DNA of 64,000 nucleotides from Patescibacteria group bacterium (GCA_028692545.1 JAQUXC010000003.1:47827-111826), one strand, 5' to 3'. Positions 29,307 to 52,670 are shown, numbered from the stretch's first letter. The notes: generated from the sequence alone by a model not told the origin. Made by a program: numbers and translations.

Positions 29307-29383
29307 TTCGCGGTAGCTCAGTTGGTTAGAGCGACTGGCTGTTAACCAGTAGGTCGTCGGTTCGAACCCGACCCGCGAAGCCA
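29307..29383 (+). tRNA. tRNA-Asn (anticodon GTT)
   Basis: TTCGCGG-TA-GCTC-AGTTGGTTA-GAGC-G-ACTGG-CTGTTAA-CCAGT-AGGTC-GTCGG-TTCGAAC-CCGAC-CCGCGAA-G-CCA; 77 nt cloverleaf with a terminator downstream. Confidence 0.9.
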
Positions 29384-30982
29384 ACCTGTATGAACAGAGG
29401 TTAAAGCCTCTGTTTTTGCTTTATTTAAAGGGTGTTTATCCAGTTCTAACCTTAAGTATTTTTGCTCTAATTCTTTATAGTCATTTTCTATTGGAATAAA
29501 CCAATCATTGAACCCTATAGACAGCTTTTTATCAGTAATTGTTATCATTTTTCCTATTCCAGATAGAATTTCTCTCTTTAGTTCTAACCTATTTTCTACC
29601 CTTGCCTTTAAGAACGCTTTATGGGCATAAGTAGCAAAATTAAAAGTTTTCTCTGCTAACTCTAACCAGTTTTCAGCCCTTGCTTCTGTGCTACGCAAAC
29701 ATTCTTTCATTTTTGATATTTTGCTTGTAAGTTCATTTTTCTCTTTTAAGAAGGCATCATCATCAATAAGTTGGCGATATCTCATTTTAGTAAGTTCATC
29801 TAATTCATTTTGTGCTTTTACTAGATTTGTATGTTGCATTTCATAAATTTTAGACCTATCTTCTATTTCAGTATCATTTTTTTTATTTAAATCTTCTAAT
29901 GCCCAATGTAGAAATTCTGGGAGAATTGTTAATCTCCCCATTTCTCTTTCAATCTCTAATTCTAAACTATCTTCTTTAACGCAACTTTTTTGAGTGCAAT
30001 TGACTTTTCTTGTCTTTCTTGTGCAATGATAGTAAGTGTATTGTTTTATTTCTTTAGTTGTTTGTAGTAGTTTATTTTTTGTTTCCGCAGTATATAGACA
30101 TCCACACTCTTTACATCTAATTAAACCAGTAAATGCAAATTCTTTACTTTTTGGTTTTATAATGCCTTTTCTCCCAAGAAGTCTTTGAACTCTATCATAT
30201 TCTTCAAGCGTAATCATTGCTTCGTGTTTACCTTCATATTCAATTCCTTTGTTTTTAATAATCCCAGCATAAAATGGATTTTTAAAGACATCATAAATAC
30301 CACTATATGAAAGAGGATTACTACCCATTCTTTTAAATTTACGAGTTCTAAAACCCCATTCATTGTTTGCAATATTTAAAATTTTTCTGGGAGTATAATT
30401 GCCAGTTAACATTAAATCCCACATATTACGAACAAGGCTAAAACGTTCAGGGTCCTTTATAATAGTTTTATTTTCTCTTTCATTAAGGTAGCCAAGTGGT
30501 GGAACTCCATTTTGCCATCCAGAATTTACTCTTTTTAGTATTCCACGTTTAGTATCTCTACTTAAATCTAAAATATATTGATTGGCTTGACCAGTTTCTA
30601 CGCTAAATAATAATACGTTATCGCTTGGGAGATATTCTTTTTCAATTGTTCTAATTGATTTTATTATTCCTTGTTGTAGGAGCCATCCAAGTTTGCCACT
30701 GTCAATTGGATTACGTGTTAATCTGTTTAAAGCCCAACATAGTATTCCATTAGCTTCCCCATTTTCAATTTTTTTTATCATCTCGTCAAATACAGGACGA
30801 TTATTTGGTTTTTTAGCTGATTTCGCTTCTGTAAATACTGTTTTAGTATTTATGTCTAGATTTGTAGCTAATTTTTGTAAAGTTTCTGTCTGGTCTTCAA
30901 TAGACTGAACTTGTTTATCTTCGCTTTCAGAAGATTTTCTTGCATACACAAAGTATGTAATTTTGTTTTGTTCTAATTTCAT
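29342..30982 (-). CDS. large serine recombinase (resolvase/invertase catalytic domain + recombinase domain + zinc ribbon)
   Basis: N-terminal YARKSSESEDKQVQSIEDQ (catalytic Ser); resolvase fold; recombinase domain; Cys4 ribbon CKECGC...YYHC; coiled-coil C-terminus; 546 aa. The last 14 codons are read from tRNA-Asn sequence. Confidence 0.85.
   Translation of the reverse strand: MKLEQNKITYFVYARKSSESEDKQVQSIEDQTETLQKLATNLDINTKTVFTEAKSAKKPNNRPVFDEMIKKIENGEANGILCWALNRLTRNPIDSGKLGWLLQQGIIKSIRTIEKEYLPSDNVLLFSVETGQANQYILDLSRDTKRGILKRVNSGWQNGVPPLGYLNERENKTIIKDPERFSLVRNMWDLMLTGNYTPRKILNIANNEWGFRTRKFKRMGSNPLSYSGIYDVFKNPFYAGIIKNKGIEYEGKHEAMITLEEYDRVQRLLGRKGIIKPKSKEFAFTGLIRCKECGCLYTAETKNKLLQTTKEIKQYTYYHCTRKTRKVNCTQKSCVKEDSLELEIEREMGRLTILPEFLHWALEDLNKKNDTEIEDRSKIYEMQHTNLVKAQNELDELTKMRYRQLIDDDAFLKEKNELTSKISKMKECLRSTEARAENWLELAEKTFNFATYAHKAFLKARVENRLELKREILSGIGKMITITDKKLSIGFNDWFIPIENDYKELEQKYLRLELDKHPLNKAKTEALTSVHTGWLRGSGSNRRPTG
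29395..29418 (+). terminator. rho-independent terminator after tRNA-Asn (lies inside the recombinase ORF on the opposite strand)
   Basis: cagagg-ttaaag-cctctg + tttttg. Confidence 0.6.
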
Positions 30983-35751: not shown

Positions 35752-37533
35752 ATGAAAAAATTACAATTACAATCTGCGGATAAACTTTCTGCAAAGAATG
35801 TTCATATTGAAGATTTCGAAAGCAAACAACAGAAATTGTTTCTCAAAGAAATTGAAAATCTTAAAAATGAAATTAAAAAACTTAAATCAAGAAAAAAATA
35901 CGGACTTGTATGGGAGGACAAACCAGAACAAGTTGTTGATATGTGTAAGGATAAATTACCTGTTCTAGTAGAGGAAAAAAATAAAGAAATTAAGGCCGAT
36001 AAAAACAAACCAATTGATATTTTAATTGAGGGCGATAACTATCACTCCCTTTCTGTTTTAAATTACACTCATAAGGGGAAAATAGATGTTATTTATATTG
36101 ACCCACCATACAATACTGGCAATAAAGATTTTATTTATAATGACCGTTATGTAGACAAAGAAGATAATTATCGTCATTCTAAGTGGCTCTCCTTTATGAA
36201 TAATAGGCTAAGGCTTGTAAAAAATTTATTAAAAGAAGATGGGTTAATTTTCATTAGTATTGATGACAACGAAGCTTCTCAACTTAAATTGTTATGCGAC
36301 GATATTTTTGGTGAACAGAACTTGCTGGATATTTTTTATTTACAAGTTAGATATGCAGGAAAATCACTTAATGAGAAAGACGATTTTCAAAAATTGATTG
36401 AACAAGTTTTAATTTATGCAAAAAATAAACATAAATTTAAACCAAATAAACCCAGTGATATTTATTCACTTGCTAAGTTTAAGTTTAGGGTGGTTGAAAA
36501 AACTAGGGGTAAAAAAATAAAACTTGGAAATAAAGAAGTGGAGATATTTAAGAAAGGAGAATATGAGATTATTGAAGAAAAAGAAGAAAATATAAACCTA
36601 TTAAAAGCAACTTGGGCTAGCGGTAGTGTTCTTAAGGGAAATACTTCTGGAAAATTTTTTCATACTTATTTAGAGAATAGGAGAGACATAGATGGACTTG
36701 GAACTTTATATAAAGTATATGGAATTGGTGAAGATGGTATTGGCTATAGATATTTTACTGGTCCAAAGAAAAGCACAGCTACAAAGGGGATATTTTATAC
36801 AGGCATTCCAAATTTTAGAAGGACTGATATTGAAGGGGGAATAGATAGTCATAAAGAACGTCCAATAGTTAACTTTTATGATTATAGTGGGGATTTTGGC
36901 AATATAAGACACGAGGGAGCCGTTGATTTTAGGAGTGGTAAGAAACCAACTAAAATGCTTAAGGAACTTATTAACTTGAATGGGAACAAAAAATCTGTGG
37001 TTCTAGATTTTTTTGCAGGTTCTGGTTCTACTGGACACGCTGTTGAGATATTAAATAAAGAAGATGGAGGAGAACGCCAATTTATTCTCTGCACAAGTAA
37101 TGAAGGTGATGTTTGCACAAAAGTTTGTTATCCAAGAATTAAAAACGTATCTAAGGATTTCAATAATAATGTTAAGTATTTTAAAACTGATTTTGTAGAC
37201 GCAAAACAAACTGACCGTAATAAGAAAAAACTTATTGATAAATCTACAGAAATGCTTTGTTTAAAAGAGTCTTGTTTTAAATTAGTTAAGAAGGGTGAAA
37301 GTTTTAAGATTTTTACGAATAATAAAAATAAATATTTAGGTATAGTTTATGATGATACAGGAATTGAGTCATTTAAAAAAGAAGTTAATAAATTAAATAA
37401 GTCAATTATCACTTATATTTTTTCTCTCGACGATAGTGCTAGAGAGGAAGAATTTGAAAATATAAAAAGATTGGTTGAGTTAAAGCCCATACCAGTCGTT
37501 ATCCTTAATGTTTATAAAAGAATATTCAAATGA
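35752..37533 (+). CDS. mod: Type III restriction-modification system methyltransferase (Mod), N6-adenine beta-class
   Basis: Motif IV IYIDPPYNTGNKDFIYNDRY precedes motif I FFAGSGSTGHA (beta-class order); 593 aa; overlaps the downstream res gene by 4 nt. Confidence 0.85.
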   Translation: MKKLQLQSADKLSAKNVHIEDFESKQQKLFLKEIENLKNEIKKLKSRKKYGLVWEDKPEQVVDMCKDKLPVLVEEKNKEIKADKNKPIDILIEGDNYHSLSVLNYTHKGKIDVIYIDPPYNTGNKDFIYNDRYVDKEDNYRHSKWLSFMNNRLRLVKNLLKEDGLIFISIDDNEASQLKLLCDDIFGEQNLLDIFYLQVRYAGKSLNEKDDFQKLIEQVLIYAKNKHKFKPNKPSDIYSLAKFKFRVVEKTRGKKIKLGNKEVEIFKKGEYEIIEEKEENINLLKATWASGSVLKGNTSGKFFHTYLENRRDIDGLGTLYKVYGIGEDGIGYRYFTGPKKSTATKGIFYTGIPNFRRTDIEGGIDSHKERPIVNFYDYSGDFGNIRHEGAVDFRSGKKPTKMLKELINLNGNKKSVVLDFFAGSGSTGHAVEILNKEDGGERQFILCTSNEGDVCTKVCYPRIKNVSKDFNNNVKYFKTDFVDAKQTDRNKKKLIDKSTEMLCLKESCFKLVKKGESFKIFTNNKNKYLGIVYDDTGIESFKKEVNKLNKSIITYIFSLDDSAREEEFENIKRLVELKPIPVVILNVYKRIFK

Positions 37534-39713
37534 TTAAATTAAAAGATTATCAAAAAGAGGCAGTAGAAAATTTACATCAAAAAATAGAAAAATCTTTAAA
37601 GTCTCCAGAAAGTGAAGTTGTAGTATTTCAAGCCCCAACTGGTTCTGGTAAAACAGTTATGGTTTCTGCTTTATTAAAAGAATTTGTAAGAAATAGGCAA
37701 GATAATAATAAATTTTCTTTTGTTTGGGTTTCTGTAAGAATGTTGCACGAACAAAGCAAAGAAAAACTAGAAAGCTATTATGAAGATGATGGGAATTTAA
37801 GATGTTCTTATTTTGAAGATTTAGAAGACCGTAAAATTGATGAAAATGAAATATTATTTATCAATTGGCACAGTATAAACAAAAAGGATATAAATATTTT
37901 TATAAAAGACAATGAAAAGGATAATAATTTAAGTAATATCATAAAGAATACTAAAGAAGACGGCAGATTTATTATTTTGATTATAGATGAAAGTCATCAT
38001 ACCGCAGGTGCAGAAAAATCAAAAGAGCTTATTGAGATTATTGGTCCCAAAATAACGCTAGAAGTTTCAGCGACACCACACTTAACAGAAAAAGTTTCGG
38101 AGATAGAAAAGGTTCGTTTGTCTGATGTTAAGGCAGAAGAAATGATTAAATCTGAAATATCAGTTAATCCAGAGTTCCTTAATATTAAAATTGGTTTAAA
38201 AAGTAGTGATGAGATAGTTATAGAGCAAGCTTTAAAGAAGAGAGAAGAGTTATTAAAGATGTATAAAAGGGAGGGTTCAAAAATAAATCCCTTAATGCTT
38301 ATTCAACTCCCAGATAATAAAAGTAATTTAGTGAGTAAAAAAGAGGGGGTGATAAAACTTTTAAATAAAAAAGGAATAACTGAAAAAAATGGAAAACTTG
38401 CCATCTGGTTATCTGAGGATAAATCTGATACTTTGCCAAACATTGAAAAAAATGATAATGAAGTTGAGGTCTTGATATTTAAACAAGCAATTGCTTTAGG
38501 TTGGGATTGTCCAAGAGCTTCGATTTTAGTGATTTTCAGAGAGTCAAAAAGTTTTACTTTTACAATCCAAACGATAGGTAGAATAATGAGAATGCCAGAG
38601 TTAAAATATTATTCAAAAGAACCAGAATTAAATGTTGGATATGTTTTTACAAATTTACCCAACATAGAAATTACGGAAGATTACGCAAAAGACTATATAA
38701 CTATTTATGAGTCAAAAAGAGATAGCAAGCTTTATAATAATATTTCTTTGCCATCAATTTATCTAAGAAGACAAAGAGAAAGAACTCGTTTATCTGGAGA
38801 ATTTGTGAAGATTTTTACAAAAATTACCGAAGCAAATAATTTTAAGAAACAAATAAATCTTAAGCCTTCAAAAATTATAAATCCTATAATAGCAGAGGGT
38901 AAAATTATCGATATTGATAAATCAGGTGAAATTGAACATAAAGGAATGCTTAAAGTATCTTTAGATGAAAAAGAATTACAAGACAAGTTTGATAGATTTA
39001 TAGTGCAAAATTGCACTCCTTATTCACCAGCGGACTCAAGCGATAGAATGAAAACGGCGATTTATCAATTTTTTAATAAGGAATTTAAATTTGATAAATA
39101 TGACTCTAAGGTTCAAAGAATGGTTTTAGGTAAAGAAAATATACAACTTTTTGTTAATATTCTTAATTTAGCTAAAGAAAAATATAAGAAAGAGGTTGTG
39201 GAGAAATTAAGTGAAAAAAGAGAACTACAAGCAATTTCTAATTGGGAGGTGCCAATATTTATAACTTATAATAGTAGATATAAAAAGGAAGAACAACCTA
39301 TTTCTGTTATGAAACCATTTTATGTTGCAACTCAAAGTGAGCCAGAAAGATTATTCATAGAGTTGCTTAATAATTCAAAAAAAATTAAGTGGTGGTATAA
39401 GAATGGTGAGGCAGAAATAAAATATTTTGCAATTTTAAGGTCTGATGATAGAGCATTTTATCCAGATTTTATAATTCAATTTAAAAACGGAACTATTGGA
39501 ATATTTGAGACTAAAAGTGGATTTACAGCGGGTGAAGACGCAAAAGAAAGAGCTGAAAGTTTGCAAAGATATATTAAGAAACAAAATAAGTCTGGTAAAA
39601 AAATTATTGGTGGTATAGCTATCTATGTCAATGGAACGTGGCGATACAATGATAATGATAAATATAAATACGACCCAAATAATTTAAGTGAGTGGAAAAT
39701 TTTGAGTTTGTAA
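37530..39713 (+). CDS. res: Type III restriction enzyme Res subunit (helicase + PD-ExK endonuclease)
   Basis: Walker A VFQAPTGSGKT, DEAH-like IIDESHH, helicase C motifs, C-terminal nuclease motif YPDFIIQF...IFETK; 727 aa. Confidence 0.85.
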   Translation: MIKLKDYQKEAVENLHQKIEKSLKSPESEVVVFQAPTGSGKTVMVSALLKEFVRNRQDNNKFSFVWVSVRMLHEQSKEKLESYYEDDGNLRCSYFEDLEDRKIDENEILFINWHSINKKDINIFIKDNEKDNNLSNIIKNTKEDGRFIILIIDESHHTAGAEKSKELIEIIGPKITLEVSATPHLTEKVSEIEKVRLSDVKAEEMIKSEISVNPEFLNIKIGLKSSDEIVIEQALKKREELLKMYKREGSKINPLMLIQLPDNKSNLVSKKEGVIKLLNKKGITEKNGKLAIWLSEDKSDTLPNIEKNDNEVEVLIFKQAIALGWDCPRASILVIFRESKSFTFTIQTIGRIMRMPELKYYSKEPELNVGYVFTNLPNIEITEDYAKDYITIYESKRDSKLYNNISLPSIYLRRQRERTRLSGEFVKIFTKITEANNFKKQINLKPSKIINPIIAEGKIIDIDKSGEIEHKGMLKVSLDEKELQDKFDRFIVQNCTPYSPADSSDRMKTAIYQFFNKEFKFDKYDSKVQRMVLGKENIQLFVNILNLAKEKYKKEVVEKLSEKRELQAISNWEVPIFITYNSRYKKEEQPISVMKPFYVATQSEPERLFIELLNNSKKIKWWYKNGEAEIKYFAILRSDDRAFYPDFIIQFKNGTIGIFETKSGFTAGEDAKERAESLQRYIKKQNKSGKKIIGGIAIYVNGTWRYNDNDKYKYDPNNLSEWKILSL

Positions 39714-39717
39714 ATAT

Positions 39718-40188
39718 ATGAAAAAGCCACGAGAAATAATAACCGAAGATTTCGTTCAAAAGACCATAATAAAATATTTAGAATTAAAAGGGTGGGGTAA
39801 ATCGTTAAAGAGTTCTGAATTGTGGGAGCAGGGTGTTGATATAAAAGTTTGTAATAATCAATTTTCTAGATATTGGCTTATAGAAGCTAAGGGAGACCCA
39901 TCAATCAATGTAAAAAATCCAAGTGGAAGTCAAAGTAGTAGTTTTAATTCAGCTTTAGGGCAGATTATTACAAGAATGCACAGAAATGGTAAAAGAGGTT
40001 ATAAATATGGTTATAAATATGGTGTAGCTCTCCCAGTGTCATTTAGAAGTATGGTCATAAGAAAAATGTCTTTTGATGTAATGGATAAATTAAACCTTTA
40101 TCTATTTTTTGTTGATAGTCTTGGGAGAGTTGAAGAAATAAACTATAAGGATTTAAAAAATCTAAGAACAAAGAAAAATGGAAAATAA
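39718..40188 (+). CDS. small PD-(D/E)xK-fold nuclease-like protein
   Basis: GVDIKVCNN...WLIEAKGD fits the D...E-x-K restriction-endonuclease-like core; 156 aa; 4 bp after res. Confidence 0.5.
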   Translation: MKKPREIITEDFVQKTIIKYLELKGWGKSLKSSELWEQGVDIKVCNNQFSRYWLIEAKGDPSINVKNPSGSQSSSFNSALGQIITRMHRNGKRGYKYGYKYGVALPVSFRSMVIRKMSFDVMDKLNLYLFFVDSLGRVEEINYKDLKNLRTKKNGK

Positions 40189-41679: not shown

Positions 41680-42237
41680 ATGAACAATAAAAGAGTAGCT
41701 GTTTTTATAGACAATAGTAATGTTTTTGGAAATATGCGAGATTTGAAAAAATCAGGAATAAATTGGGTTTGTTTGTATGACCCAGAATTTTTAGCAAAAA
41801 AATTAGCTGGAAATAGAGAATTAGTGTATACAGGATTTTATTGCACTAGACCACCAGCATATCTTTTAAAGGGAAATAATGATGAAAAATATAAATTTAA
41901 TACTGCTAATAAATATTACAGCGAAATAGAAAAAAATCCTTCTGTATCCGTGAAATATGGAGACTTAAAGGGAACTAGAGGCAATCTAATAGAAAAAAAT
42001 TTAGATACTCAAATAAGCTCTGATATGGTAGAAATGGCGGCGTTTGATAAATATGACATCGCAATTATAGTTTCTAATGATGGGGATTATAAAAGTGCTA
42101 TTGAAAGCACTAAGAAATTTAATAAAAAAATAGAGGTTTTATTTTTTCAGGGTAGCTTATCTATGTCTTTAAGAAGTGTAAGTGATATAACAAGACGAGC
42201 TAGATGTTCTTATTTTGTGAAATTAGATGGTATGTAG
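41680..42237 (+). CDS. NYN-domain (LabA/DUF88-like) putative ribonuclease
   Basis: RVAVFIDNSNV...D..IIVSNDGDY pattern of NYN/PIN-like nucleases; 185 aa. Confidence 0.7.
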   Translation: MNNKRVAVFIDNSNVFGNMRDLKKSGINWVCLYDPEFLAKKLAGNRELVYTGFYCTRPPAYLLKGNNDEKYKFNTANKYYSEIEKNPSVSVKYGDLKGTRGNLIEKNLDTQISSDMVEMAAFDKYDIAIIVSNDGDYKSAIESTKKFNKKIEVLFFQGSLSMSLRSVSDITRRARCSYFVKLDGM

Positions 42238-42444: not shown

Positions 42445-42479
42445 AAAGACGTTTTTTATCAAGGCGTCTTTTTGTTTTT
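42445..42479 (+). terminator. rho-independent terminator
   Basis: aaagacg-ttttttatcaagg-cgtcttt + ttgttttt. Confidence 0.55.
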
Positions 42480-42546
42480 CAGCTAGATTGATTTTTAGGT
42501 TGAAATGTGCGAAAATATGAATATTCTTATATAAAAATGAATAATT

Positions 42547-45489
42547 ATGAATATCACAGATCATCAAGCTAAATATTTTGCTTATGAGCTCACTAAACGT
42601 TGTGCTTCAGATAGTCTAGAAAAATTATCATCAACTCTCTCAAATTCTCAAGTAGATTTGAACCCACATCAAATAGAGGCAGCTTTATTTGCTTTTAGAT
42701 CTCCACTTTCTAAAGGAGCTATTTTAGCTGATGAGGTTGGTTTAGGAAAAACAATTGAAGCTGGTCTTGTAATTTCTCAAAAGTGGGCAGAGAGAAAAAG
42801 AAAAATACTTTTAATAGTTCCTGCTAGTTTAAGAAAACAATGGAATTCAGAGCTCCAAGAAAAATTTTTTATTCCATCAATTATTTTAGAAGCAAAATCT
42901 TTTAATCAGTATATAAAAGAAGGAAATCTTAATCCATTTAATCAAAAAGACCTTATAGTAATCTGTTCATATCATTTTGCAAAAGGAAAATCTGTTTATA
43001 TAAAACAAACGAATTTTGATTTAGTTATTATTGATGAGGCGCATAGATTGAGAAATGTTTATAAAAATAATAATGTAATCGCCCGTGAGATAAAGGACGC
43101 AGTTCAGGCATATCCAAAAATACTTCTTACAGCCACACCATTACAAAATTCTTTACTTGAATTATATGGATTAACAAGTATTATTGATGAACATATCTTT
43201 GGAGATTTAAACAGCTATAAGGCTAATTATGCAAAAGTATCTAGAGAACAAGATATATATGAGAGTGAACTTGGAATGGTAGAACCAAGACAAGAGATGT
43301 TTGTTGATTTACGAAATAGACTTAAACCAATTTGTATTCGTACTTTACGTAGACAAGTTTTAGAATATATAAATTATCGTGATAGAAAACCAATTACTCA
43401 AGATTATATTCCAACAGAACAGGAAATTGAGTTGTATGATGGAATGACAGAATATTTACAAAGACCCAAATTGTATGCGCTACCATCAAGTCAACGCCAA
43501 CTTATGACGCTTATTTTAAGAAAACTTTTGGCCTCTTCTTCTTTTGCTATTGCAAGTACTCTAGATGGTCTTATTTATAAATTAGATAAACTTATAGAAC
43601 ACATCAGACAAAATTCAGTTGTTAAAATTGATGATTTACCAAAAGAAATAGAAGAGGACTATGAAACATATTCTGAAACTGTTGATGAGTGGATTGATAA
43701 TGAAAAAGATGAGAACGAAAATAAGATCAATGAAAAGAAAAATAAATTAAATATTGAAGATATACAACAAATTAAAGAAGAAAAAAAAGATTTAGAAGTA
43801 TTTAGAGATTTAGCTAAATCTATATTCAAGAATTCAAAAGGAGAGTCACTTTTAATAGCTTTAAAGAAGGGCTTCGAAATGACACAGGATCTTGGAGCTC
43901 AAAAAAAAGCTGTTATTTTTACAGAATCTAGAATTACGCAAAAATATTTATTAGATTTATTATCTGAAAATGGATATCAAGACAAGATTATTTTATTCAA
44001 TGGCACAAATAATGATCAAAAATCAAAAGAAATATATTTAGAATGGTTGAAAAAGAATAAAGATACTGACAAAATTACTGGCTCTAAAACAGCTGATTTA
44101 CGTGCGGCAATCGTAGAATATTTTAAATCAGATGCTGAAATTATGATCGCTACTGAAGCAGCAGCAGAGGGTATAAATTTACAATTTTGTTCTTTGGTTA
44201 TAAATTATGATCTTCCGTGGAATCCCCAAAGAATTGAACAGAGAATTGGTCGTTGTCATCGTTATGGACAAAAACACGATGTTGTCGTGGTAAATTTTGT
44301 AAATAGAAAAAATGCTGCCGATCAAAGGGTCTATGAACTTTTAGATCAGAAATTTATGTTATTTAAGGGTGTATTTGGTGCAAGTGATGAAGTTCTTGGA
44401 AATATTGAATCTGGGGTAGATTTTGAAAAAAGGATAGCTTCAATTTATCAATCTTGTCGTACCGAAGAAGAAATTAATAAAGCATTCGATTCTCTTCAAG
44501 CAGAAATGGATGAATCTATTCAAGAAGGAATTAAAAATGCAAAAGAGAAACTACTTGAAAATTTTGATGCAGATGTACACGAAAAATTAAAGATAAATTT
44601 AAAAGAAAGTAGGGCTTATTTAGAAACATATGAAAAATGGTTATGGGAAATCTCACAATACTTTTTGAAAGACAAAGCCAATTATTCAACTGATGATTAT
44701 TCTTTTACATTAAAAGAAAATCCATTTCCAGGTGAAGATATTGATGAAGGTCCTTATAGAATTGGAAAAAATATTGAAGATGCACATATTTATCGTCCGG
44801 GACATCCATTAGCAATTCGCATTTTAGATAAAATAAAATCAAATCAGTTATATCCGTGTGAAATCGTTTTTAACTATTCTAACTATGGACAAATTATTTC
44901 CCCAATCAAGGAATTAATCGGCATTTCTGGTATAATGAAAGTATCCCAATTAACAATTGATTCATTTGAGACGGAAGATGTTGTGTTGGTTACCGCAATA
45001 AATGATAGGGGCAATGTTATAGAAGAAGATATCGCAAAGAAGCTTTTTGCCTTAGATACTGAAATATTGCAAAATAAAATTGAGATAGAATCAGAAAATA
45101 TAGATAAAAAAGAAAAAGAAAAAGTTAAAATTATTACTACTAATATTTCCGAGAGAAATAGCGAATTTTTTGATGAAGAAGTTGACAAACTTGATAAATG
45201 GGCTGAAGATGTAAAAAAGAGTTTAGAAATAGAGCTTAGAAGAATGGATATAGATATAAAAACAATGAAAACAAATGCAAAGAAAATTTTAAACTTAGAA
45301 GAAAAAGTAAAATTACAAAGAGAGATAAAAAACTTAGAAAAGAAAAGAAATGAGATGCGTCAAAAGCTTTATAAAGCCCAAGATGAAGTAGATGTAAAAA
45401 AAGAAAATTTACTTGATAAAGTAGAAGCGCAACTTAATCAAAAAATATCTCTAACTACACTATTTGTTATTAAATTTAAAATAATATAA
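42547..45489 (+). CDS. SNF2-family helicase/ATPase with ~340-aa coiled-coil C-terminal extension
   Basis: Motif I LADEVGLGKTIEAG, II IIDEAHRLRN, III LTATPLQNSLLELY, VI NPQRIEQRIGRCHRYGQ; 980 aa. Confidence 0.85.
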   Translation: MNITDHQAKYFAYELTKRCASDSLEKLSSTLSNSQVDLNPHQIEAALFAFRSPLSKGAILADEVGLGKTIEAGLVISQKWAERKRKILLIVPASLRKQWNSELQEKFFIPSIILEAKSFNQYIKEGNLNPFNQKDLIVICSYHFAKGKSVYIKQTNFDLVIIDEAHRLRNVYKNNNVIAREIKDAVQAYPKILLTATPLQNSLLELYGLTSIIDEHIFGDLNSYKANYAKVSREQDIYESELGMVEPRQEMFVDLRNRLKPICIRTLRRQVLEYINYRDRKPITQDYIPTEQEIELYDGMTEYLQRPKLYALPSSQRQLMTLILRKLLASSSFAIASTLDGLIYKLDKLIEHIRQNSVVKIDDLPKEIEEDYETYSETVDEWIDNEKDENENKINEKKNKLNIEDIQQIKEEKKDLEVFRDLAKSIFKNSKGESLLIALKKGFEMTQDLGAQKKAVIFTESRITQKYLLDLLSENGYQDKIILFNGTNNDQKSKEIYLEWLKKNKDTDKITGSKTADLRAAIVEYFKSDAEIMIATEAAAEGINLQFCSLVINYDLPWNPQRIEQRIGRCHRYGQKHDVVVVNFVNRKNAADQRVYELLDQKFMLFKGVFGASDEVLGNIESGVDFEKRIASIYQSCRTEEEINKAFDSLQAEMDESIQEGIKNAKEKLLENFDADVHEKLKINLKESRAYLETYEKWLWEISQYFLKDKANYSTDDYSFTLKENPFPGEDIDEGPYRIGKNIEDAHIYRPGHPLAIRILDKIKSNQLYPCEIVFNYSNYGQIISPIKELIGISGIMKVSQLTIDSFETEDVVLVTAINDRGNVIEEDIAKKLFALDTEILQNKIEIESENIDKKEKEKVKIITTNISERNSEFFDEEVDKLDKWAEDVKKSLEIELRRMDIDIKTMKTNAKKILNLEEKVKLQREIKNLEKKRNEMRQKLYKAQDEVDVKKENLLDKVEAQLNQKISLTTLFVIKFKII

Positions 45490-45493
45490 AGAT

Positions 45494-47164
45494 ATGGATA
45501 ATAAACAAAGATTAGAGCTTACTTGGATTGGTAAAAATAATCTTGATTATGATATTTCTAATATTGAGCCGAGAATCTTAGAAGAGAATTTGAAACTTTC
45601 AAATTGTGAAAATGATCCAAATACGGAGAATATGATTATACACGGAGATAATTTACTTGCCCTTAAGGCTCTTCTTCCGGAATATGAGGGGAAAATAAAA
45701 TGTATTTATATTGATCCGCCCTATAATACTGGTAATGCTTTTGAACATTATGATGATTGTGTCGAACACAGTACTTGGCTTTCATTAATGAAACCAAGAT
45801 TAGAGTTATTAAAAAAATTGTTAAGTAGAGACGGAGTAATATTAGTTCAAATTGATGATAAAGAAGGTCATTATTTGAAAGTTTTAATGGACGAAGTATT
45901 TGATAGGAATAATTTTTTAGTATCAATTGCTGTAAGATCGTCTACACCAAGTGGGTTAAAAACAGCCCACAAAGCAAAAACAATTATTAAACAAAAAGAT
46001 TTTATTTTAGTCTATAAGAATGGCCCAGATATTAAAATTAGTCCTGCATACATCCCCAAAGAAAGTTGGGATGATCATTATAATTATTTTTTTGATAAAG
46101 AAAATAATAAAGTATTGAACTTAAAAGATGTTTTATTAGAGCATGGTATAGTTGATAAAAAACAAAAAATATCAGATATAAATATTTTCGATAAGGACTT
46201 TAGAGATTTTTATTTAAAAAACAAGGATAGAATATTCCGTACAGCCCCAGAAATGCCCATAGACATAAAAAACCAATCTAAACAAAATTTAAGTACAATA
46301 ATCGAATATGGTGACGAAGATGGTAAACAGTATGCATGGAATGGCAATAGAATGACTTTTTTAAATAAAACTATAAAAATCATAGATGGAGAAGAATACA
46401 TGTCAAATCTTTTATGCGATTTTTGGGGGGATATAGATTTTCAAAATACTCAAAATGAAGGAGGCGTGAAATTTCCAGCAAGTAAAAAACCAGAAAAATT
46501 GATTTTAAGAATTTTAAATATGTTTACAGAAGAAAATGACTTTGTTTTAGACTCATTTCTTGGTTCTGGCACAACTGCTGCAGTAGCGCATAAAATGAAG
46601 CGAAGGTATATAGGTGTTGAAATGGGGGATCATGCCTATTCACATTGTAAGGTACGGCTTGATAATGTGATAGATGGCTCTGACCAAGGTGGAATAAGCA
46701 GATCTGTGGAATGGAAAGGTGGGGGTGCATATAGATTTTATGAACTTGCACCTAGTTTTATTATAAAAGATGAATTTAGCAATCCTATTATTGATGAATA
46801 TTATGATGATGTTAAGCTTATAAAAGCAATGTGTAAATTTATGAATTTTACTTATCAACCAAGTAAAACAGAATATTGGAAACACGGCATTGGACAAGGT
46901 AAGAATTATATCTACATTACAACACAACTTTTAACATCTGGAATAGTACAACAAATTATTGGACATTTAAAAGAAGGGGAAACTCTAACAATTTGTCCTA
47001 AGAAATTTGAACCAGGAGCTGATAAAATTGATAATCGAATAATTATTAAAAAAATTCCTCAATCGGTTTTAAAATCTTGTCAATTTGGTAAAAAAGATTA
47101 TCTTCTCCCAATTAAAGAATTATCCATGGAAGAAATTGATACCGATGAAGAGAACGACGAATAA
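45494..47164 (+). CDS. Type III-like N6-adenine DNA methyltransferase (Mod), beta-class
   Basis: IYIDPPYNTGNAFEHYDD (motif IV) precedes FLGSGTTAAVA (motif I); 556 aa; 4 bp after the SNF2 gene. Confidence 0.85.
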   Translation: MDNKQRLELTWIGKNNLDYDISNIEPRILEENLKLSNCENDPNTENMIIHGDNLLALKALLPEYEGKIKCIYIDPPYNTGNAFEHYDDCVEHSTWLSLMKPRLELLKKLLSRDGVILVQIDDKEGHYLKVLMDEVFDRNNFLVSIAVRSSTPSGLKTAHKAKTIIKQKDFILVYKNGPDIKISPAYIPKESWDDHYNYFFDKENNKVLNLKDVLLEHGIVDKKQKISDINIFDKDFRDFYLKNKDRIFRTAPEMPIDIKNQSKQNLSTIIEYGDEDGKQYAWNGNRMTFLNKTIKIIDGEEYMSNLLCDFWGDIDFQNTQNEGGVKFPASKKPEKLILRILNMFTEENDFVLDSFLGSGTTAAVAHKMKRRYIGVEMGDHAYSHCKVRLDNVIDGSDQGGISRSVEWKGGGAYRFYELAPSFIIKDEFSNPIIDEYYDDVKLIKAMCKFMNFTYQPSKTEYWKHGIGQGKNYIYITTQLLTSGIVQQIIGHLKEGETLTICPKKFEPGADKIDNRIIIKKIPQSVLKSCQFGKKDYLLPIKELSMEEIDTDEENDE

Positions 47165-47168
47165 TATT

Positions 47169-49991
47169 ATGCAACCAGAACAAGCATTACAATATTTAAA
47201 TAGTACGATGAATTTAAGAGAGCCACAGGCAAAGAGTCTGCAAATTTTTTCTGATTATTTAAAATCTTCAGCTGGACAAATACTGTTAAAAAGAATGAAT
47301 AATAAAAATAATACAGAAAAAATTTTAGAATCATCAAAAAATTATTTTAAAGACATACCTGAAGCTCAAGAATTCGAAGTATTTGAAAGAGCTTTCCCAG
47401 CTTTTACTTTTGCACTTGCAACTGGAGTTGGTAAAACTCGTCTTATGGGAGCTTTTGTAGCATATCTTTATCTTGTATATAACATTCAACATTTTTTAAT
47501 CGTAGCTCCAAATCTTACTATTTATCGCAAATTACATGAAGATTTTAGTAGAGCAAATAATCCAAAATATGTTTTTAAAGGTATTCAAGAAATAAATATA
47601 AATACCACAAAGATTATTACTACTGATAATTATGCCAGCCATAAAGAAAATCCACTTTTTGGTAATCAAATTGAAATAAATATTTTTAATATCCAACAAT
47701 TTGCACAAAAGGATATGGCCAATGAACGTGGAATAACAAAAGCATGGGAAACTGCCAGTCAATCATATTTTGATTATTTAAAAAATCAAGAAGATTTAGT
47801 TGTTATGCTTGATGAGGCACATCATTATCATGCTGATGCAGCACTTGGTTCTCTTGATTTAATGAATCCTTTATTTGGTTTAGAATTTACTGCTACTCCA
47901 TATTTAGGTACTCAAGGCACTGGAAGAAATTTGCAACAAATAAGAATGAAAAATGTGCTATATTCTTATAATCTTGGTGATGCTATTCGTGGTAAATTTG
48001 TAAAAGATCCATGGGTAGGAACAGAGGCAGACGTGGATTTTCAACAATTCAATACAGAATCAATAGAAACTGATGTACGCAAATTACAATTAGCTGCTTA
48101 TTTTCATGAGCGTGCTAAAAATGCACTTAAAGAATACGCTCTCGAAAATAATAAACCGATTATTAAACCAGTTTTATTAGTAGTTGCAAAAGATACAAAA
48201 CATTCTGCTGAACTGAAGTCTCTTATAGATAGTGATGATTTTAGAGGAGGTGAGTTCAAGGGGAAAGTGATTGAAATAAATACAAAAATTCGTGGAGAAG
48301 AAGCAGATGAAAATATTGAAAAGTTGATTTCTTTAGAACATCCGGATAATACCATTGAGGTGGTTATTCATGTTAATATGTTAAAAGAGGGTTGGGATGT
48401 AACAAATGTTTACACAATAGCACCAATTAGAGCTGCAGCTACAGCAATTCTAACAGAGCAAACAATAGGTAGGGGGTTGCGTCTTCCTTATGGCGAGCGT
48501 ACAGGAGTGCCTTTAGTAGACAGATTAATGATTGTAGCACACGAACAATTTAAGAAAATTATAGAACTTGCTAAAGATTCTCCACTTATTCAAGGACGCG
48601 TAGAAGAAATATCGGAAAAAGAAACAAAAGAAATAAAAACTCTCACAGAAGTTCAACCAATAATACTTCAAAACATTACTACTGAAATAAAGAAGAATGA
48701 ACTTATAATGCGTGCTGTAAGTGAAAAAGCAGAAGATGCAATTTCTAAGCTACCTGAAATTCAATCTATTGATACTGATGTTAAAGAGAAAATGGTTGAA
48801 AAGAAGATAGAAGAATTAGTAAAAGAAACCGCCAAACAAACAGTTAGCGGATTATCATTTTCAGATTATCATAATCAGAAACAAAAAATACAAGTAAAAA
48901 CATCTTATGATCCAGATTCTTTCTTGGGACTATTGAATCCAGATGTACAGAAGGAACTTACAAAAATAGCCAAAGAATCGAGTATTGAATTAGAAAAAAG
49001 AAACATTCCTATACCAAGACTTATTCTTACACCAAATTATAGTGAGCTTATAATACACGATTTTGACTTGAATACTGGCATTCTTCAAAAATATACAAAT
49101 GAAAGAGCTATTTTAGAAGAACAACTTCAAAACGAAAAGGAAAAAAACCTATTTGGCGAAGATGTTCCCGGAAGACGTGTAACAGAAATAACTAGAGTAA
49201 CCAGTTTCGGAGCACAAAACAGGCAATCTCCTCAAAATACAATTATTGCAGCATTATTGGATTTTCCTCTAGTTGATTATGATGACCAAGGACAAAGACC
49301 ATTATTGTTAAAATTAGCAGATCAAGCAGTTAATTATTATAAAAAAACTGCAATTGACGATGATAATCTTTCATTAATTATAGAAAGTAATGCAAAATCA
49401 ATTGCTGGAGATATCTATAAACAAATTTTGGAACATAAAGAATACAAAGAAGAATATTTGGATTCTGGTGTAGCTGAACCAAAACCGTATTTAGAACAAT
49501 ATAATATTTCTATTTCATTTGGAGAAAAACCAGTTTCACTCAAATCTCAGGTAGATAGTTTTTCATATAAATTATTATATAATAATTTTCAAAAAGCGTG
49601 TCATTCTATGTATCGCTTCGATTCTTCTGATGAAATTAGATTAGCATATCTTTTAGATAATGATGGTTCTGTAGAAGATTGGCTTAGACCAGCACCAAAT
49701 CAATTTGAAGGATTGTATTGGAGAGACACAGAAGGAGAAGCGCATCATCGTTATGAACCGGATTTTGTAGTTGAGTTGAAAAAAGAAATTGTTATGATTG
49801 AAGTTAAACCAAGGGAAGAAATAGACACTCCAAACGTACAATCGAAAAAAACTACTGCTGATAAATATTGTGAAGAAATAAATAAAAATATAGGAAAATT
49901 TGGAATAACAAAACCATGGAGATATACTATAATCCCAACAGATAAAATAACCATTAATTCAACAATTGAGGGTTTATTTAGCAATAAATAA
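47169..49991 (+). CDS. Type III-like restriction subunit (Res: DEAH helicase + C-terminal PD-ExK nuclease)
   Basis: Walker A ATGVGKT; DEAH box LDEAHHYH; C-terminal YEPDFVVE...IEVKP. Start set at the ATG at 47169 just after the mod stop (the track ORF begins earlier within mod). Confidence 0.8.
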   Translation: MQPEQALQYLNSTMNLREPQAKSLQIFSDYLKSSAGQILLKRMNNKNNTEKILESSKNYFKDIPEAQEFEVFERAFPAFTFALATGVGKTRLMGAFVAYLYLVYNIQHFLIVAPNLTIYRKLHEDFSRANNPKYVFKGIQEININTTKIITTDNYASHKENPLFGNQIEINIFNIQQFAQKDMANERGITKAWETASQSYFDYLKNQEDLVVMLDEAHHYHADAALGSLDLMNPLFGLEFTATPYLGTQGTGRNLQQIRMKNVLYSYNLGDAIRGKFVKDPWVGTEADVDFQQFNTESIETDVRKLQLAAYFHERAKNALKEYALENNKPIIKPVLLVVAKDTKHSAELKSLIDSDDFRGGEFKGKVIEINTKIRGEEADENIEKLISLEHPDNTIEVVIHVNMLKEGWDVTNVYTIAPIRAAATAILTEQTIGRGLRLPYGERTGVPLVDRLMIVAHEQFKKIIELAKDSPLIQGRVEEISEKETKEIKTLTEVQPIILQNITTEIKKNELIMRAVSEKAEDAISKLPEIQSIDTDVKEKMVEKKIEELVKETAKQTVSGLSFSDYHNQKQKIQVKTSYDPDSFLGLLNPDVQKELTKIAKESSIELEKRNIPIPRLILTPNYSELIIHDFDLNTGILQKYTNERAILEEQLQNEKEKNLFGEDVPGRRVTEITRVTSFGAQNRQSPQNTIIAALLDFPLVDYDDQGQRPLLLKLADQAVNYYKKTAIDDDNLSLIIESNAKSIAGDIYKQILEHKEYKEEYLDSGVAEPKPYLEQYNISISFGEKPVSLKSQVDSFSYKLLYNNFQKACHSMYRFDSSDEIRLAYLLDNDGSVEDWLRPAPNQFEGLYWRDTEGEAHHRYEPDFVVELKKEIVMIEVKPREEIDTPNVQSKKTTADKYCEEINKNIGKFGITKPWRYTIIPTDKITINSTIEGLFSNK

Positions 49992-49994
49992 TTT

Positions 49995-51341
49995 ATGTCT
50001 AAATTTTTAATTTATAAAAATAAGGAAAAGATATTTAATTTAAATACTAAACTATATTTTGAAGAAGTTTATAAATCTTACTGTTCAAAAAATTACAGAT
50101 CAGCGGTTGTTATGTTATATTCAGTTGTTATATGTGATTTAATTTATAAATTACAAGAACTCAGAGATATATATAAGGATGATTGTGCGGTTGAAATTTT
50201 AAAAAAGATATCCACTTTAAGAAGTAGGGATGAAAAATCTCCAAAATGGGAGTCAGAACTTATTGAACTTATAAACAATAAAACATCCTTTTTTGAGAAT
50301 GCTGACTATGCTAATCTAATTAGTCTTCAGCAACACAGACACTTATCTGCTCATCCAGTTTTAGATCAGATAGATTTATTATTTTCACCAAATAAAGAAA
50401 CTACCAGGGCACATATTAGAAATATGCTTGAGGGAATACTTATTAAACCGCCTATATTTTCAAGAAAAATAATTGATCAATTGATTACAGATATATCATT
50501 AAAACAAGACATTTTTTTAAATAGAGGCTCTGATTTAAAAAAATATTTAGAAGCTAAATATTTAAAAAATTTATCAAAAGAAGTTGAGATTGCTATATTT
50601 AAAGCTTTGTGGAAATTTATATTTATAATTGAGAATGAAGATTGTGATAAAAATAGAAGTATTAATTTAGAGGCTCTAAAAATAATTTTTTATAGAAATA
50701 AGGAAAATTACTTACAATTAATAAAATCAGAAAGTGATTTTTTTAGTAATATTTCAAGAGGTAATTCTCTTATTTATTTAATAGTTTTTTTATCAAAAAA
50801 TAGAGAGATATATAAATTTTTAAATGATGGGGCTAAAGAAATTATAAAAGGTGGCTGCAAAGATGATGATAATTGTTATTTATTAAGTTGGTTTATAGAA
50901 GACGACATTTTAGAACACATAAAAAATGTTAAAAAGTATATTGTAGAAGAAAAGAGACATTTCGATATTAAAGTCGGTGCTTTTAATAGTTTGTTAGTTA
51001 TGGGATCTGAATTAAAATGTGAAAATGATATATTAGAATTTGGAATTTTTCTTTTTGGAAAAAGTACTAATTTCAACACGGCTGATAAAAGATTTGACGA
51101 TCTGATTGCCCCTTTTATGAATAAATATAATAAACAGCTCTTTAATATTTTATTTGAATCAATTGAATCTAATGACCAGGTTTATAATCGAGGAAGAATG
51201 TCTAGTGATAGTGAAAAAATTAAAAGTATTGCAGATAATGTTTTGGGGACAGATTTTGATTATAGTATCTATCCTGAATTTATGAAAAAATTGAATCCTT
51301 TAGAGTATTATAAGCAATTATCACAGACTAATTCAAATTAA
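49995..51341 (+). CDS. hypothetical 448-aa protein, last gene of the SNF2-Mod-Res operon (possible accessory/abortive-infection-like component)
   Basis: Starts 3 bp after res. Helical, no motif recognised; operon position suggests a functional link. Confidence 0.4.
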   Translation: MSKFLIYKNKEKIFNLNTKLYFEEVYKSYCSKNYRSAVVMLYSVVICDLIYKLQELRDIYKDDCAVEILKKISTLRSRDEKSPKWESELIELINNKTSFFENADYANLISLQQHRHLSAHPVLDQIDLLFSPNKETTRAHIRNMLEGILIKPPIFSRKIIDQLITDISLKQDIFLNRGSDLKKYLEAKYLKNLSKEVEIAIFKALWKFIFIIENEDCDKNRSINLEALKIIFYRNKENYLQLIKSESDFFSNISRGNSLIYLIVFLSKNREIYKFLNDGAKEIIKGGCKDDDNCYLLSWFIEDDILEHIKNVKKYIVEEKRHFDIKVGAFNSLLVMGSELKCENDILEFGIFLFGKSTNFNTADKRFDDLIAPFMNKYNKQLFNILFESIESNDQVYNRGRMSSDSEKIKSIADNVLGTDFDYSIYPEFMKKLNPLEYYKQLSQTNSN

Positions 51342-51371: not shown

Positions 51372-52670
51372 TTATTTTTTTAATGTAATTTTTTTATCCT
51401 TCAATATCAAATCACTCTTAAAACAACTCATCAGCTCTCTTTTTTCAATCATAGTCCCAGACCTTAAAATGTATTTAGCATAATCATTGATGCTAAATTT
51501 TTTTTGTTTTATTTCTTTGTTGTCTATTTCTACGAATCCTTTGTTGAATCTTGTATATCTTTGTAATTCTTCTTCAAATTGTTTTTGTATTCCTATATCA
51601 TCTATTTCTATTTTATCTACAATTTCTATAAGTTGTTTAATTAATTCTTCTTCTCGTATATATCCACCCTTACAAAATCTATTACTACTTCTAGTGCATC
51701 CATAGTATATATATTTAACAACTGATCCATCGCTTAGTTTTTTGAATTTTTCTTCTGCTGTAATTCCTGATCCACATAATCCGCATTTCATAAGTTTGGT
51801 AAATGCGAACTCTCTACAAACTTTATTTTCAATACTAAATGTATTGTATCTATCTCTTACTTTTATAAACAACTCTTTTGATATTATTGGATCATGTAAT
51901 CCTTTGTACCATTTATTACTTCCTATTGGATATTCAAATTCTCCATAATAAAATGTTTCATGAAGTATTTGAAAAATTGTACTAAGTGTTGGATTTTTTC
52001 CTTTTCTAGTTTTAAACCCAATTTCCATCAACCATTTTAATATTTTTTTACCACTAAAATTTTCATAAGCAACTCGCTCAAACATTTGTTTTATTATATG
52101 AGCTCTTTTAGGATCTAAAAATATTCTTTTGCTCCCTTTATCTCCATATTTATCATGAATATATCCAAGAGGTGGAGGAGATGGTCGCCATCCTTTTTCA
52201 CACTTTGCCCTCAAACCTCTTTGTACGTTTATGCTTTTATTATCGTTTTCTAATTTTGCTTGAGAACCTAGAATCATAAGAAGAAACTTTTCATTCGGAT
52301 TGTTGGTAAATTTTTGCCCATGTGTTTTTATTCCAACTAGTTTACCTTGATCCATTAAATCTACTATTCTTCCAAGGTCTCCTGCGTTTCTACTTAATCT
52401 ATCAGGAGCCCAGCATAGTATTCCTTGAAACATTCCGTTTTTTACATCTTCTAGTAATTGATTAAATACTGGTCTTTGTCCTGAGTCTTTTGCAGAATGA
52501 CTTTCCTTTCTAATCTCTGTAATTGTCATATTTTCCTTTATAGCCATTTCCATCATCTCCTTTATCTGAGAGTCTATTGAAAGGGCTTGTAATTCGTCCT
52601 GTTCTGTCGATTTACGAGCGTATAAACAGTATTTAACTGTTGAGTCGTCAAGCGTCGTTTTTGTGTCCAT
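51372..52670 (-). CDS. large serine recombinase (second copy, different sequence)
   Basis: LYARKSTEQDELQALSIDSQ catalytic region, recombinase domain, Cys ribbon CGLCG...YYGC; 432 aa. Confidence 0.85.
   Translation of the reverse strand: MDTKTTLDDSTVKYCLYARKSTEQDELQALSIDSQIKEMMEMAIKENMTITEIRKESHSAKDSGQRPVFNQLLEDVKNGMFQGILCWAPDRLSRNAGDLGRIVDLMDQGKLVGIKTHGQKFTNNPNEKFLLMILGSQAKLENDNKSINVQRGLRAKCEKGWRPSPPPLGYIHDKYGDKGSKRIFLDPKRAHIIKQMFERVAYENFSGKKILKWLMEIGFKTRKGKNPTLSTIFQILHETFYYGEFEYPIGSNKWYKGLHDPIISKELFIKVRDRYNTFSIENKVCREFAFTKLMKCGLCGSGITAEEKFKKLSDGSVVKYIYYGCTRSSNRFCKGGYIREEELIKQLIEIVDKIEIDDIGIQKQFEEELQRYTRFNKGFVEIDNKEIKQKKFSINDYAKYILRSGTMIEKRELMSCFKSDLILKDKKITLKK

Follow-up and report, generated by a model that had tools for sequence, protein, structure and literature searches.

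The 448-amino acid (aa) protein encoded toward the end of a 64,000-nt stretch of DNA from a Patescibacteria group bacterium (GCA_028692545.1 JAQUXC010000003.1:47827-111826; the whole stretch is referred to here as the window) is, judging by its sequence, a clear relative of the anti-phage protein known as PD-T7-3, DARNA or "Dandelion." It is best explained as an orthodox member of that family, and it represents a known kind of enzyme and not a new system. Its gene is the last of four closely spaced genes, the first three of which encode an SNF2 helicase and the Mod and Res proteins of a Type III-like restriction-modification (R-M) system. We consider it probable that the protein is a HEPN tRNase that senses single-stranded DNA (ssDNA) and acts by abortive infection, and that its gene, although probably co-transcribed with the SNF2, mod and res genes, is functionally independent of them.

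What is the evidence for family membership? First, the PADLOC model for PD-T7-3 (PDLC04108) matches the protein with E=1.8e-156, with residues 1-430 of the query aligned to positions 1-429 of the 432-position profile. Second, a sequence search of the PDB recovered 9wxf, "Dandelion" (12 chains), with E=2.7e-90. Third, the protein is 42% identical (E=4e-101) to ORF1 of the Z-region of the E. coli prophage P2-EC30. The three names converge. The 9wxf chain, the sequence of which was recovered from the PDB search alignment, matches ORF1 of the P2-EC30 "proviral Z-region" (AJ512676.1) with 100% identity, and 16/16 residues named in the preprint describing DARNA map onto the 9wxf chain at a constant +5 offset. 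Because of this residue mapping and the identity to ORF1, Dandelion, DARNA and PD-T7-3 are one and the same protein. The family is moderately large, with 1,463 clusters at 50% identity at E<=1e-3 and 394 at E<=1e-30. Pfam, NCBIfam and PHROGs gave no match to the 448-aa protein, and its identification came only from PADLOC and the PDB sequence search. A Foldseek search with the full-length model, against a copy of the PDB that apparently lacked 9wxf, returned only helical-repeat noise (best E=0.06), and a literature search on the name "Dandelion" returned nothing relevant. The identical protein on record is a hypothetical protein from a Patescibacteria-group metagenome-assembled genome (MAG), and the plasmid and single phage matches listed carry the label "hypothetical protein" wherever a feature is annotated under the match. 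A reading of the window made earlier from the sequence alone (the sequence-only reading) had likewise called the protein unknown; in fact, its family has a PADLOC model, solved structures and a preprint on its mechanism.

The prototype of the family has been characterized in E. coli. PD-T7-3 came from a functional selection (Vassallo et al. 2022, PMC9519451) and was renamed DARNA, for ssDNA-Activated RNase, in a 2026 preprint (10.64898/2026.02.22.705581). According to that preprint, DARNA consists of a HEPN RNase domain (aa 1-159) with the motif R117-x4-H122, followed by a C-terminal helical domain (aa 160-456) to which ssDNA binding is assigned. The protein is a homododecamer, is activated by ssDNA, cuts the anticodon loops of most tRNAs, and is reported to be an abortive-infection system. 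A single gene suffices in vivo, and the in vitro reaction uses purified protein, ssDNA and phage SSB, with no R-M component. The preprint describes a specificity for "CT" in the activating ssDNA, the significance of which its authors call unclear, and it does not discuss the genomic context of DARNA genes (10.64898/2026.02.22.705581). In its GenBank entry (AJ512676.1), P2-EC30 ORF1 is a lone open reading frame (ORF) at a P2 prophage hotspot, with flanking repeats and its own annotated -35/-10 promoter. The GenBank entry begins ORF1 (positions 364-1779, 471 aa) some 15-16 codons earlier than the 456-aa DARNA numbering would place its start.

The window protein, at 448 aa versus 456 aa for DARNA, resembles the prototype in its domains as well as in its overall sequence. 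Separate PDB entries match its N-terminal and C-terminal parts (Table 1). The AlphaFold2 model, built from the family alignment, is all-helical, with a mean confidence (pLDDT) of 89.8 and values mostly >90 in the C-terminal domain. Confidence is lower in two places, the loop that follows the catalytic histidine (residues 121-130) and the inter-domain linker (residues 151-160); in the model, these dips mark off a predicted N-terminal domain of ~155 aa. The sequence-only reading had described a helical protein with a distinct N-terminal domain, and that description was sound. Its statement that the protein has no recognisable catalytic motif was wrong. R115 and H120 form a canonical HEPN Rx4-6H motif equivalent to that of DARNA, and both residues are invariant in 43/43 aligned relatives and in all 80 copies from the genome loci described below.

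The 43-sequence alignment of relatives also shows which other functional residues of DARNA are kept. Recognition of the C and T bases involves three residues, all of them retained: F368 (C/T base contact) corresponds to F360 of the window protein, with F/Y in 41/43 relatives; D372 (C base contact) corresponds to D364, with D/N in 42/43; and Q403 (T base contact) corresponds to Q395, with Q in 41/43. Y405, which contacts a third base, corresponds to Y397; Y/H are common at this position, and an aromatic residue (Y/H/W) is usual across the family. The neighboring W406, which stacks on the third base and is essential in E. coli, is replaced by N398. This position varies family-wide (D/N/G/Y), and W406, being variable, may not be family-defining. 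N408 (backbone contact) is replaced by G400 at another variable position. Among the RNA-binding residues, R98 corresponds to K96 (R/K in 41/43) and K204 to K203 (R/K in 42/43), while K69 and K201 are replaced by E67 and A200, and both of these positions vary across the family. At the inter-hexamer interface, F6 and E347 correspond to F4 and E339 and are partly conserved, and N33 is replaced by S31, with N in 26/43 relatives.

How might the protein work? By analogy with the prototype, a single polypeptide would combine an N-terminal HEPN endoribonuclease, with R115 and H120 in its active site, and a C-terminal helical sensor. It would most likely assemble through HEPN dimers into a higher-order oligomer. 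In an uninfected cell, the enzyme would stay inactive. Phage replication would make ssDNA accessible, the C-terminal domains would bind it, and the activated enzyme would then cleave the anticodon loops of host tRNAs, bringing translation to a halt. The tRNA target, the activation by ssDNA and the oligomeric state are all borrowed from the E. coli protein. As the last gene in the SNF2-Mod-Res unit of a Patescibacteria integrative element, the gene would encode autonomous, interchangeable cargo and not a restriction-enzyme subunit.

The arrangement of the gene relative to its upstream neighbors is tight. The TAA stop codon of res, at 49989-49991, is followed by ttt and then by the ATG of the 448-aa gene, so the ORF and its 3-nt distance from res are as the sequence-only reading had them. 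ATG 49995 is taken as the start because homologs keep the N-terminus from residue 1-4. Similarly, homolog alignments of Res begin at a conserved ATG at 47169, whereas the mechanical ORF runs from a TTG at 47085. The gaps within the four-gene unit are 4, 4 and 3 nt. A consensus scan places a terminator-like hairpin and promoter-like hexamers upstream of the SNF2 gene, the likely start of the operon, and the same kind of scan found no terminator-like site between res and the 448-aa gene or 3' of the 448-aa gene. The earlier statement that there is no intergenic promoter is trivially true with a gap of 3 nt. Promoter-like hexamers do occur within the 3' end of res, for example at 49905-49933 (10/12 matches), in an AT-rich region where such sites are found at chance level (77 versus 65.3 +/- 8.0 expected). 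Judging from spacing only, the gene is probably co-transcribed with the SNF2, mod and res genes. Shine-Dalgarno-like motifs at -18 to -4 precede just 2/54 window ORFs of >=100 aa, and upstream regions are A/T-rich instead. Since these motifs are barely used, their absence from the 448-aa gene is the norm for this genome, and arguments about start sites or translational coupling that are based on them do not apply here. Recent foreign origin was considered as an explanation for the lower GC content of the gene (24% versus 29-31%) and was rejected; GC content at third codon positions is 0.16, as compared with 0.15-0.20 in neighboring genes, and because the third-position values match, the difference is attributed to amino acid composition.

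Is the 448-aa gene a regular companion of this R-M system? Neighborhoods were compared from the side of Res, in 80 metagenome loci (L088-L167) with full-length Res relatives at 34-79% identity. Mod lies upstream of Res in 68/68 relatives and SNF2 in 42/47. Thus, the DrmD-like SNF2, Mod and Res form a conserved triad and not a canonical two-gene Type III system. The gene that follows Res is a different matter. None of the 55 Res relatives with >=1.4 kb of downstream sequence is followed by a DARNA-like gene, and the linkage of the DARNA-like gene to this Res family is not conserved. Where there is room downstream, 22/57 loci have a tightly spaced, same-strand gene after Res, and these genes fall into 20 unrelated clusters. 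The occupants are mostly recognisable defence genes, including GajA/OLD, Abi_2, RhuM, a KAP NTPase, a GHKL ATPase, Mrr, PLD, a reverse transcriptase, a MotA/ExbB-like protein, PDC-M36A and others. Because 22 genes represent 20 unrelated clusters, the slot after Res is best described as a hypervariable defence-cargo site, with DARNA one occupant among many. In one locus (L095), the SNF2-Mod-Res triad directly abuts a homolog of the large serine recombinase that follows the DARNA-like gene in the window, with no cargo. The window looks like a triad module and a DARNA module stacked beside that recombinase.

The same question was asked from the DARNA side, using 80 species-level genome loci from many phyla. 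A homolog of either Res protein of the window was found in 0/80 of these loci. Among homologs whose upstream sequence is visible, the two closest differ in what precedes them, and neither has an R-M partner: one (P0003, 59% identity, L001) is preceded by a SMODS-containing cluster, and the other (P0004, 57% identity, L003) stands alone, 627 nt after the gene for ribosomal protein S16 and convergent with a serine recombinase gene. Both loci share the large serine recombinase and the ParB-methylase of the window, and L001 also shares its S24 repressor; in a neighbor-joining tree, the window copy clusters with these two, although what lies upstream is different in each of the three. For the closest homolog of all (P0002, 63% identity, L085-L087), each of the three independent contigs stops 116-180 nt short of the gene on its upstream side; this suggests that assembly broke at a repeat or a variable junction and is consistent with a mobile-element boundary. 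Most of the 80 loci have unrelated neighbors, often with gaps of >=100 nt. These neighbors include an integrase, an IS transposase, Mfd and an outer-membrane protein; in six Microcoleus genomes they are housekeeping genes, and an Agrobacterium plasmid copy lies between conjugation genes. Some copies are decaying, with in-frame stops in the gene-homologous region (one in L027, one in L053 and five in L069). With neighbors that vary over the 80 loci as well as between the closest relatives, and with a prototype that is a lone ORF, the family has a single-gene habit; the window copy itself is presumed to share this autonomy. The sequence-only reading had named random occurrence of homologs with respect to R-M genes as an outcome that would refute it, and for this Res family that is essentially what was observed, given the absence of the pairing from both sets of loci and the differing neighbors of the closest relatives. 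Its guess at the function fared better in part. An abortive-infection or anti-phage effector module agrees with membership in the PD-T7-3/DARNA family, but a specificity or Res-associated subunit does not agree with the 0/55 count.

The absence of a link to this Res family does not extend to R-M systems in general. An R-M- or SNF2-type gene lies within 6 kb of the DARNA-family gene in 17/80 loci (~21%), on the same strand in 16 of the 17, and all 17 come from phyla other than that of the window host. Three arrangements recur. First, Type I operons of the form hsdM-hsdS-(Abi_C)-DARNA-hsdR occur in L044, L046, L063 and L077; L076 has hsdM-hsdS-(217-aa ORF)-DARNA and then a contig end, and in L068 and L078 the same strand carries Type I genes a few kb upstream. 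Second, Type III-like res-DARNA-mod operons occur in two Clostridia/Oscillospiraceae MAGs (L081, ~8.8-13.4 kb; L084, 7047-13176). In both, a ResIII-type gene and a Mod-type methylase gene flank the DARNA gene (with gaps of 2 and 20 nt in L084), which is thus nested and not appended. Third, in Hma-like loci that belong to one DARNA clade (L012, L018, L026, L030, L033, L053 and L055; ~3.5-11.3 kb), an HmaB-like methylase (~1,000-1,100 aa) and an HmaA/BrxH-like SNF2 protein are followed by a terminal DARNA gene, and the SNF2 stop codon and the DARNA start either share a 4-nt overlap or are no more than 5 nt apart. In the neighbor-joining tree, the R-M-linked copies fall in at least 5-6 separate positions. 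All of them are full length and have retained both the catalytic pair and the F/Y-D-Q pocket, an argument for their continued autonomy as sensor-effectors. The association is not random, yet it follows a pattern already described: linkage of HEPN proteins to R-M systems is long established, with at least 16 HEPN clades and PrrC/EcoprrI as the paradigm (PMC3710099), and independent defence genes embedded in Hma, BREX, DISARM and Type I systems have been documented (Payne et al. 2024, 10.1101/2024.01.29.577857).

Several observations weigh against an orthodox DARNA that functions independently. First, W406, K69, K201 and N33 of the prototype are replaced (N398, E67, A200 and S31), and these substitutions mean that activator preference, substrate range or assembly could differ. 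Second, in about a fifth of the loci the family member adjoins or is embedded in a Type I, Type III-like or Hma-like operon, nearly always on the same strand, which hints at selection for linkage. Third, the 3-nt gap, with no terminator-like site and no demonstrable promoter of its own, ties expression of the gene to the R-M operon.

The first of these points leads to one competing possibility, that the protein belongs to the same family but has diverged in mechanism, with another trigger or RNA target, such as a different ssDNA preference, or mRNA or rRNA in place of tRNA. We regard this as unlikely, though deserving of some weight. Identity to the prototype is only 42%, W406, N408, K69 and K201 are exchanged for N, G, E and A, W406 is poorly conserved family-wide, and the meaning of the "CT" specificity is unclear even to the authors who described it. 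However, the residues that read C and T (F368, D372 and Q403) and two of the four basic residues that contact RNA are conserved, and the aromatic Y397 adjoins the missing tryptophan.

The second and third points lead to the main rival, that the RNase is wired to the SNF2-Mod-Res system as a backstop. This could occur in either of two ways. The R-M complex may hold the RNase inactive and free it when a phage inhibits restriction, as for PrrC with EcoprrI and Stp, or the activating ssDNA may come from Res or SNF2 translocating on and cutting phage DNA. In support of such wiring are the operon gaps of 4, 4 and 3 nt, the recurrence of same-strand embedding in at least 5-6 phylogenetically separate lineages, the presence of superfamily 2 (SF2)/SNF2 DNA translocases in all partner systems, the fact that the prototype is both an anticodon nuclease like PrrC and activated by ssDNA, and the general precedent of multi-pronged HEPN-R-M defence (PMC3710099). 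Nevertheless, wiring of the window gene seems improbable. The prototype works as a single gene, and the purified protein works when supplied with ssDNA and phage SSB and no R-M component. The R-M-linked copies, with their length, catalytic pair and ssDNA pocket kept, look like autonomous sensors. The two closest relatives have no R-M partner, and none of the 55 Res relatives with enough downstream sequence carries a DARNA-like gene. Moreover, unrelated defence genes are commonly found embedded in R-M, Hma, BREX and DISARM systems (10.1101/2024.01.29.577857), which co-transfer alone can explain. The more general proposition, that DARNA RNases are functionally coupled to DNA-translocating modification systems here and in at least five other lineages, as a PrrC-like backstop with a different sensor, is similarly doubtful. 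If it were true, the activator would be ssDNA from Res, HsdR or SNF2 acting on phage DNA, or the RNase would be released when R-M is inhibited; in either case, ssDNA sensing would be linked to restriction activity.

A third possibility, that the protein serves the Type III-like restriction enzyme as an accessory or specificity subunit, has its position directly after res with a 3-nt gap in its favor and is effectively refuted by the co-occurrence data (0/55 Res relatives with enough downstream sequence, 0/80 DARNA loci); it is extremely improbable, given also that members of the family are found alone on prophages, plasmids and chromosomes, that the protein carries an RNase active site, and that Type III specificity resides in Mod. 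The orthodox, ssDNA-sensing DARNA tRNase thus stays the preferred interpretation.

The coordinates of the gene, its functional regions and the surrounding features are collected in Table 1.

Table 1. The DARNA-family gene, its operon and other features of the window
Feature	Position	Strand	Basis or remark
DARNA/PD-T7-3/Dandelion-family gene, 448 aa	49995..51341	+	ATG start; ORF confirmed
N-terminal HEPN RNase domain, ~aa 1-156	49995..50462	+	PDB 9wx2 "Dandelion-hepn" over residues 4-156, E=2.3e-44
HEPN motif RHLSAH, R115-x4-H120 (Rx4H), equivalent to DARNA R117/H122	50337..50354	+	Read from sequence
C-terminal all-helical domain, ssDNA sensor by homology	50463..51338	+	PDB 9wwz over residues 155-428, E=2.1e-39
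F360...D364, equivalent to DARNA ssDNA "CT" contacts F368, D372	51072..51086	+	Alignment mapping
Q395-V-Y397-N398-R-G400, equivalent to DARNA Q403/Y405/W406/N408	51177..51194	+	Alignment; Q and Y kept
Terminator-like hairpin (42445-42471) and promoter-like hexamers (42500-42527) before SNF2 ATG	42445..42527	+	Consensus scan only
DrmD-like SNF2 helicase, operon gene 1	42547..45489	+	Pfam SNF2-rel_dom + Helicase_C; PADLOC DrmD 1.5e-204
Type III Mod (N6/N4 DNA methyltransferase)	45494..47164	+	Pfam N6_N4_Mtase 4e-41; PADLOC MTase_III 6e-143
Type III Res, SF2 helicase + C-terminal PD-(D/E)xK/TnsA-like nuclease	47169..49991	+	Pfam ResIII 6e-20; PADLOC REase_III 4e-125
Large serine recombinase	51372..52670	-	Pfam Resolvase + Recombinase + Zn_ribbon_recom; convergent with DARNA-like gene, 30-nt gap
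Second large serine recombinase	29342..30982	-	Overlaps 3' part of tRNA-Asn (29307-29383, +) by ~40 nt
156-aa ORF	39718..40188	+	4 nt after stop of second Type III Res (Mod+Res 35752-39713)
NYN-domain protein	41680..42237	+	Pfam 3.5e-16; weak PADLOC HEC-09 match, E=1.3e-11; directly upstream of SNF2 operon
Short S-adenosylmethionine synthetase, 312 aa	56807..57745	+	Directly after S24/LexA-like repressor of the element

The gene lies in a defence island that is associated with mobile DNA. The recombinase gene convergent with the DARNA-like gene is part of a mobile-element backbone; the same convergent pairing is seen in L003/L004, and homologous recombinases occur in L001, L095 and L113. Between this gene and the second recombinase gene lie two Type III R-M systems and the NYN, SNF2 and DARNA-like genes, a layout that suggests tandem or nested integrative elements. 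The SNF2 protein scores 686 bits against the NCBIfam model DISARM_DrmD_b, under the cut-off of 950. The NYN protein may be a further defence gene of the same island; HEC-09, which it weakly matches, is an RNase-type defence candidate that was first found embedded in Hma systems (10.1101/2024.01.29.577857). The 156-aa ORF after the second Res repeats the post-Res slot layout of the DARNA-like gene. It has no match in Pfam, PADLOC, NCBIfam or PHROGs, and a D...E-x-K-like pattern seen by eye (GVDIKV...LIEAKG) suggests a small PD-(D/E)xK nuclease fold. The region around the S-adenosylmethionine synthetase gene contains at least three DNA methyltransferase genes.

What are the implications? First, a former "unknown protein" is now a confidently named defence gene, of a family that Pfam, NCBIfam and PHROGs still miss. 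Second, a DARNA-type abortive-infection tRNase is now placed in the Patescibacteria, also known as the Candidate Phyla Radiation (CPR). These bacteria have tiny genomes, which makes the presence of a suicide system notable. Third, two context patterns are documented here: an SNF2-Mod-Res triad with a hypervariable 3' slot for defence cargo, and the embedding of about one fifth of DARNA-family genes in modification or translocase operons.

The closest known system is DARNA itself. The window protein and DARNA share a two-domain, all-helical architecture, the Rx4H motif, the F/D/Q contacts to ssDNA, the R/K contacts to RNA, and a place among the defence cargo of mobile elements. They differ in host, with the window copy in a Patescibacteria MAG and the prototype in E. 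coli, and in setting, with the window copy as the fourth gene of an SNF2-Mod-Res operon and the prototype alone with its own promoter. W406, K69, K201 and N33 of the prototype are not kept in the window copy. PrrC and RloC, of which PrrC is associated with the Type I R-M system EcoprrI, are likewise HEPN-type tRNA anticodon nucleases encoded in or beside an R-M operon, and the layered logic is common to both: restriction first, then suicide. Indeed, the position of prrC between hsdS and hsdR is exactly that of some other DARNA-family genes. However, PrrC and RloC have an N-terminal ABC-ATPase and a C-terminal HEPN anticodon nuclease domain, whereas the window protein has no ATPase domain (no match in Pfam or NCBIfam) and its HEPN domain is N-terminal, and there is no sequence relationship outside the HEPN motif. 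The DARNA prototype also differs in its trigger, which is ssDNA with phage SSB and not loss of an R-M partner. The HEC and PDC candidates of the "guilt by embedding" study (10.1101/2024.01.29.577857) are also independent defence genes in or at a multi-gene modification or helicase system. The window gene sits at the 3' end of its operon and not between core genes, and the full text of that study makes no mention of PD-T7-3. Finally, the neighbors of the gene, as distinct from the 448-aa protein, can be compared with class 1 DISARM (DrmD/DrmMI). The window operon likewise combines a DrmD-like SNF2 protein, an N6/N4 adenine-type methylase and a helicase-nuclease, but it lacks DrmA, DrmB and DrmC, and its nuclease is a Type III Res.

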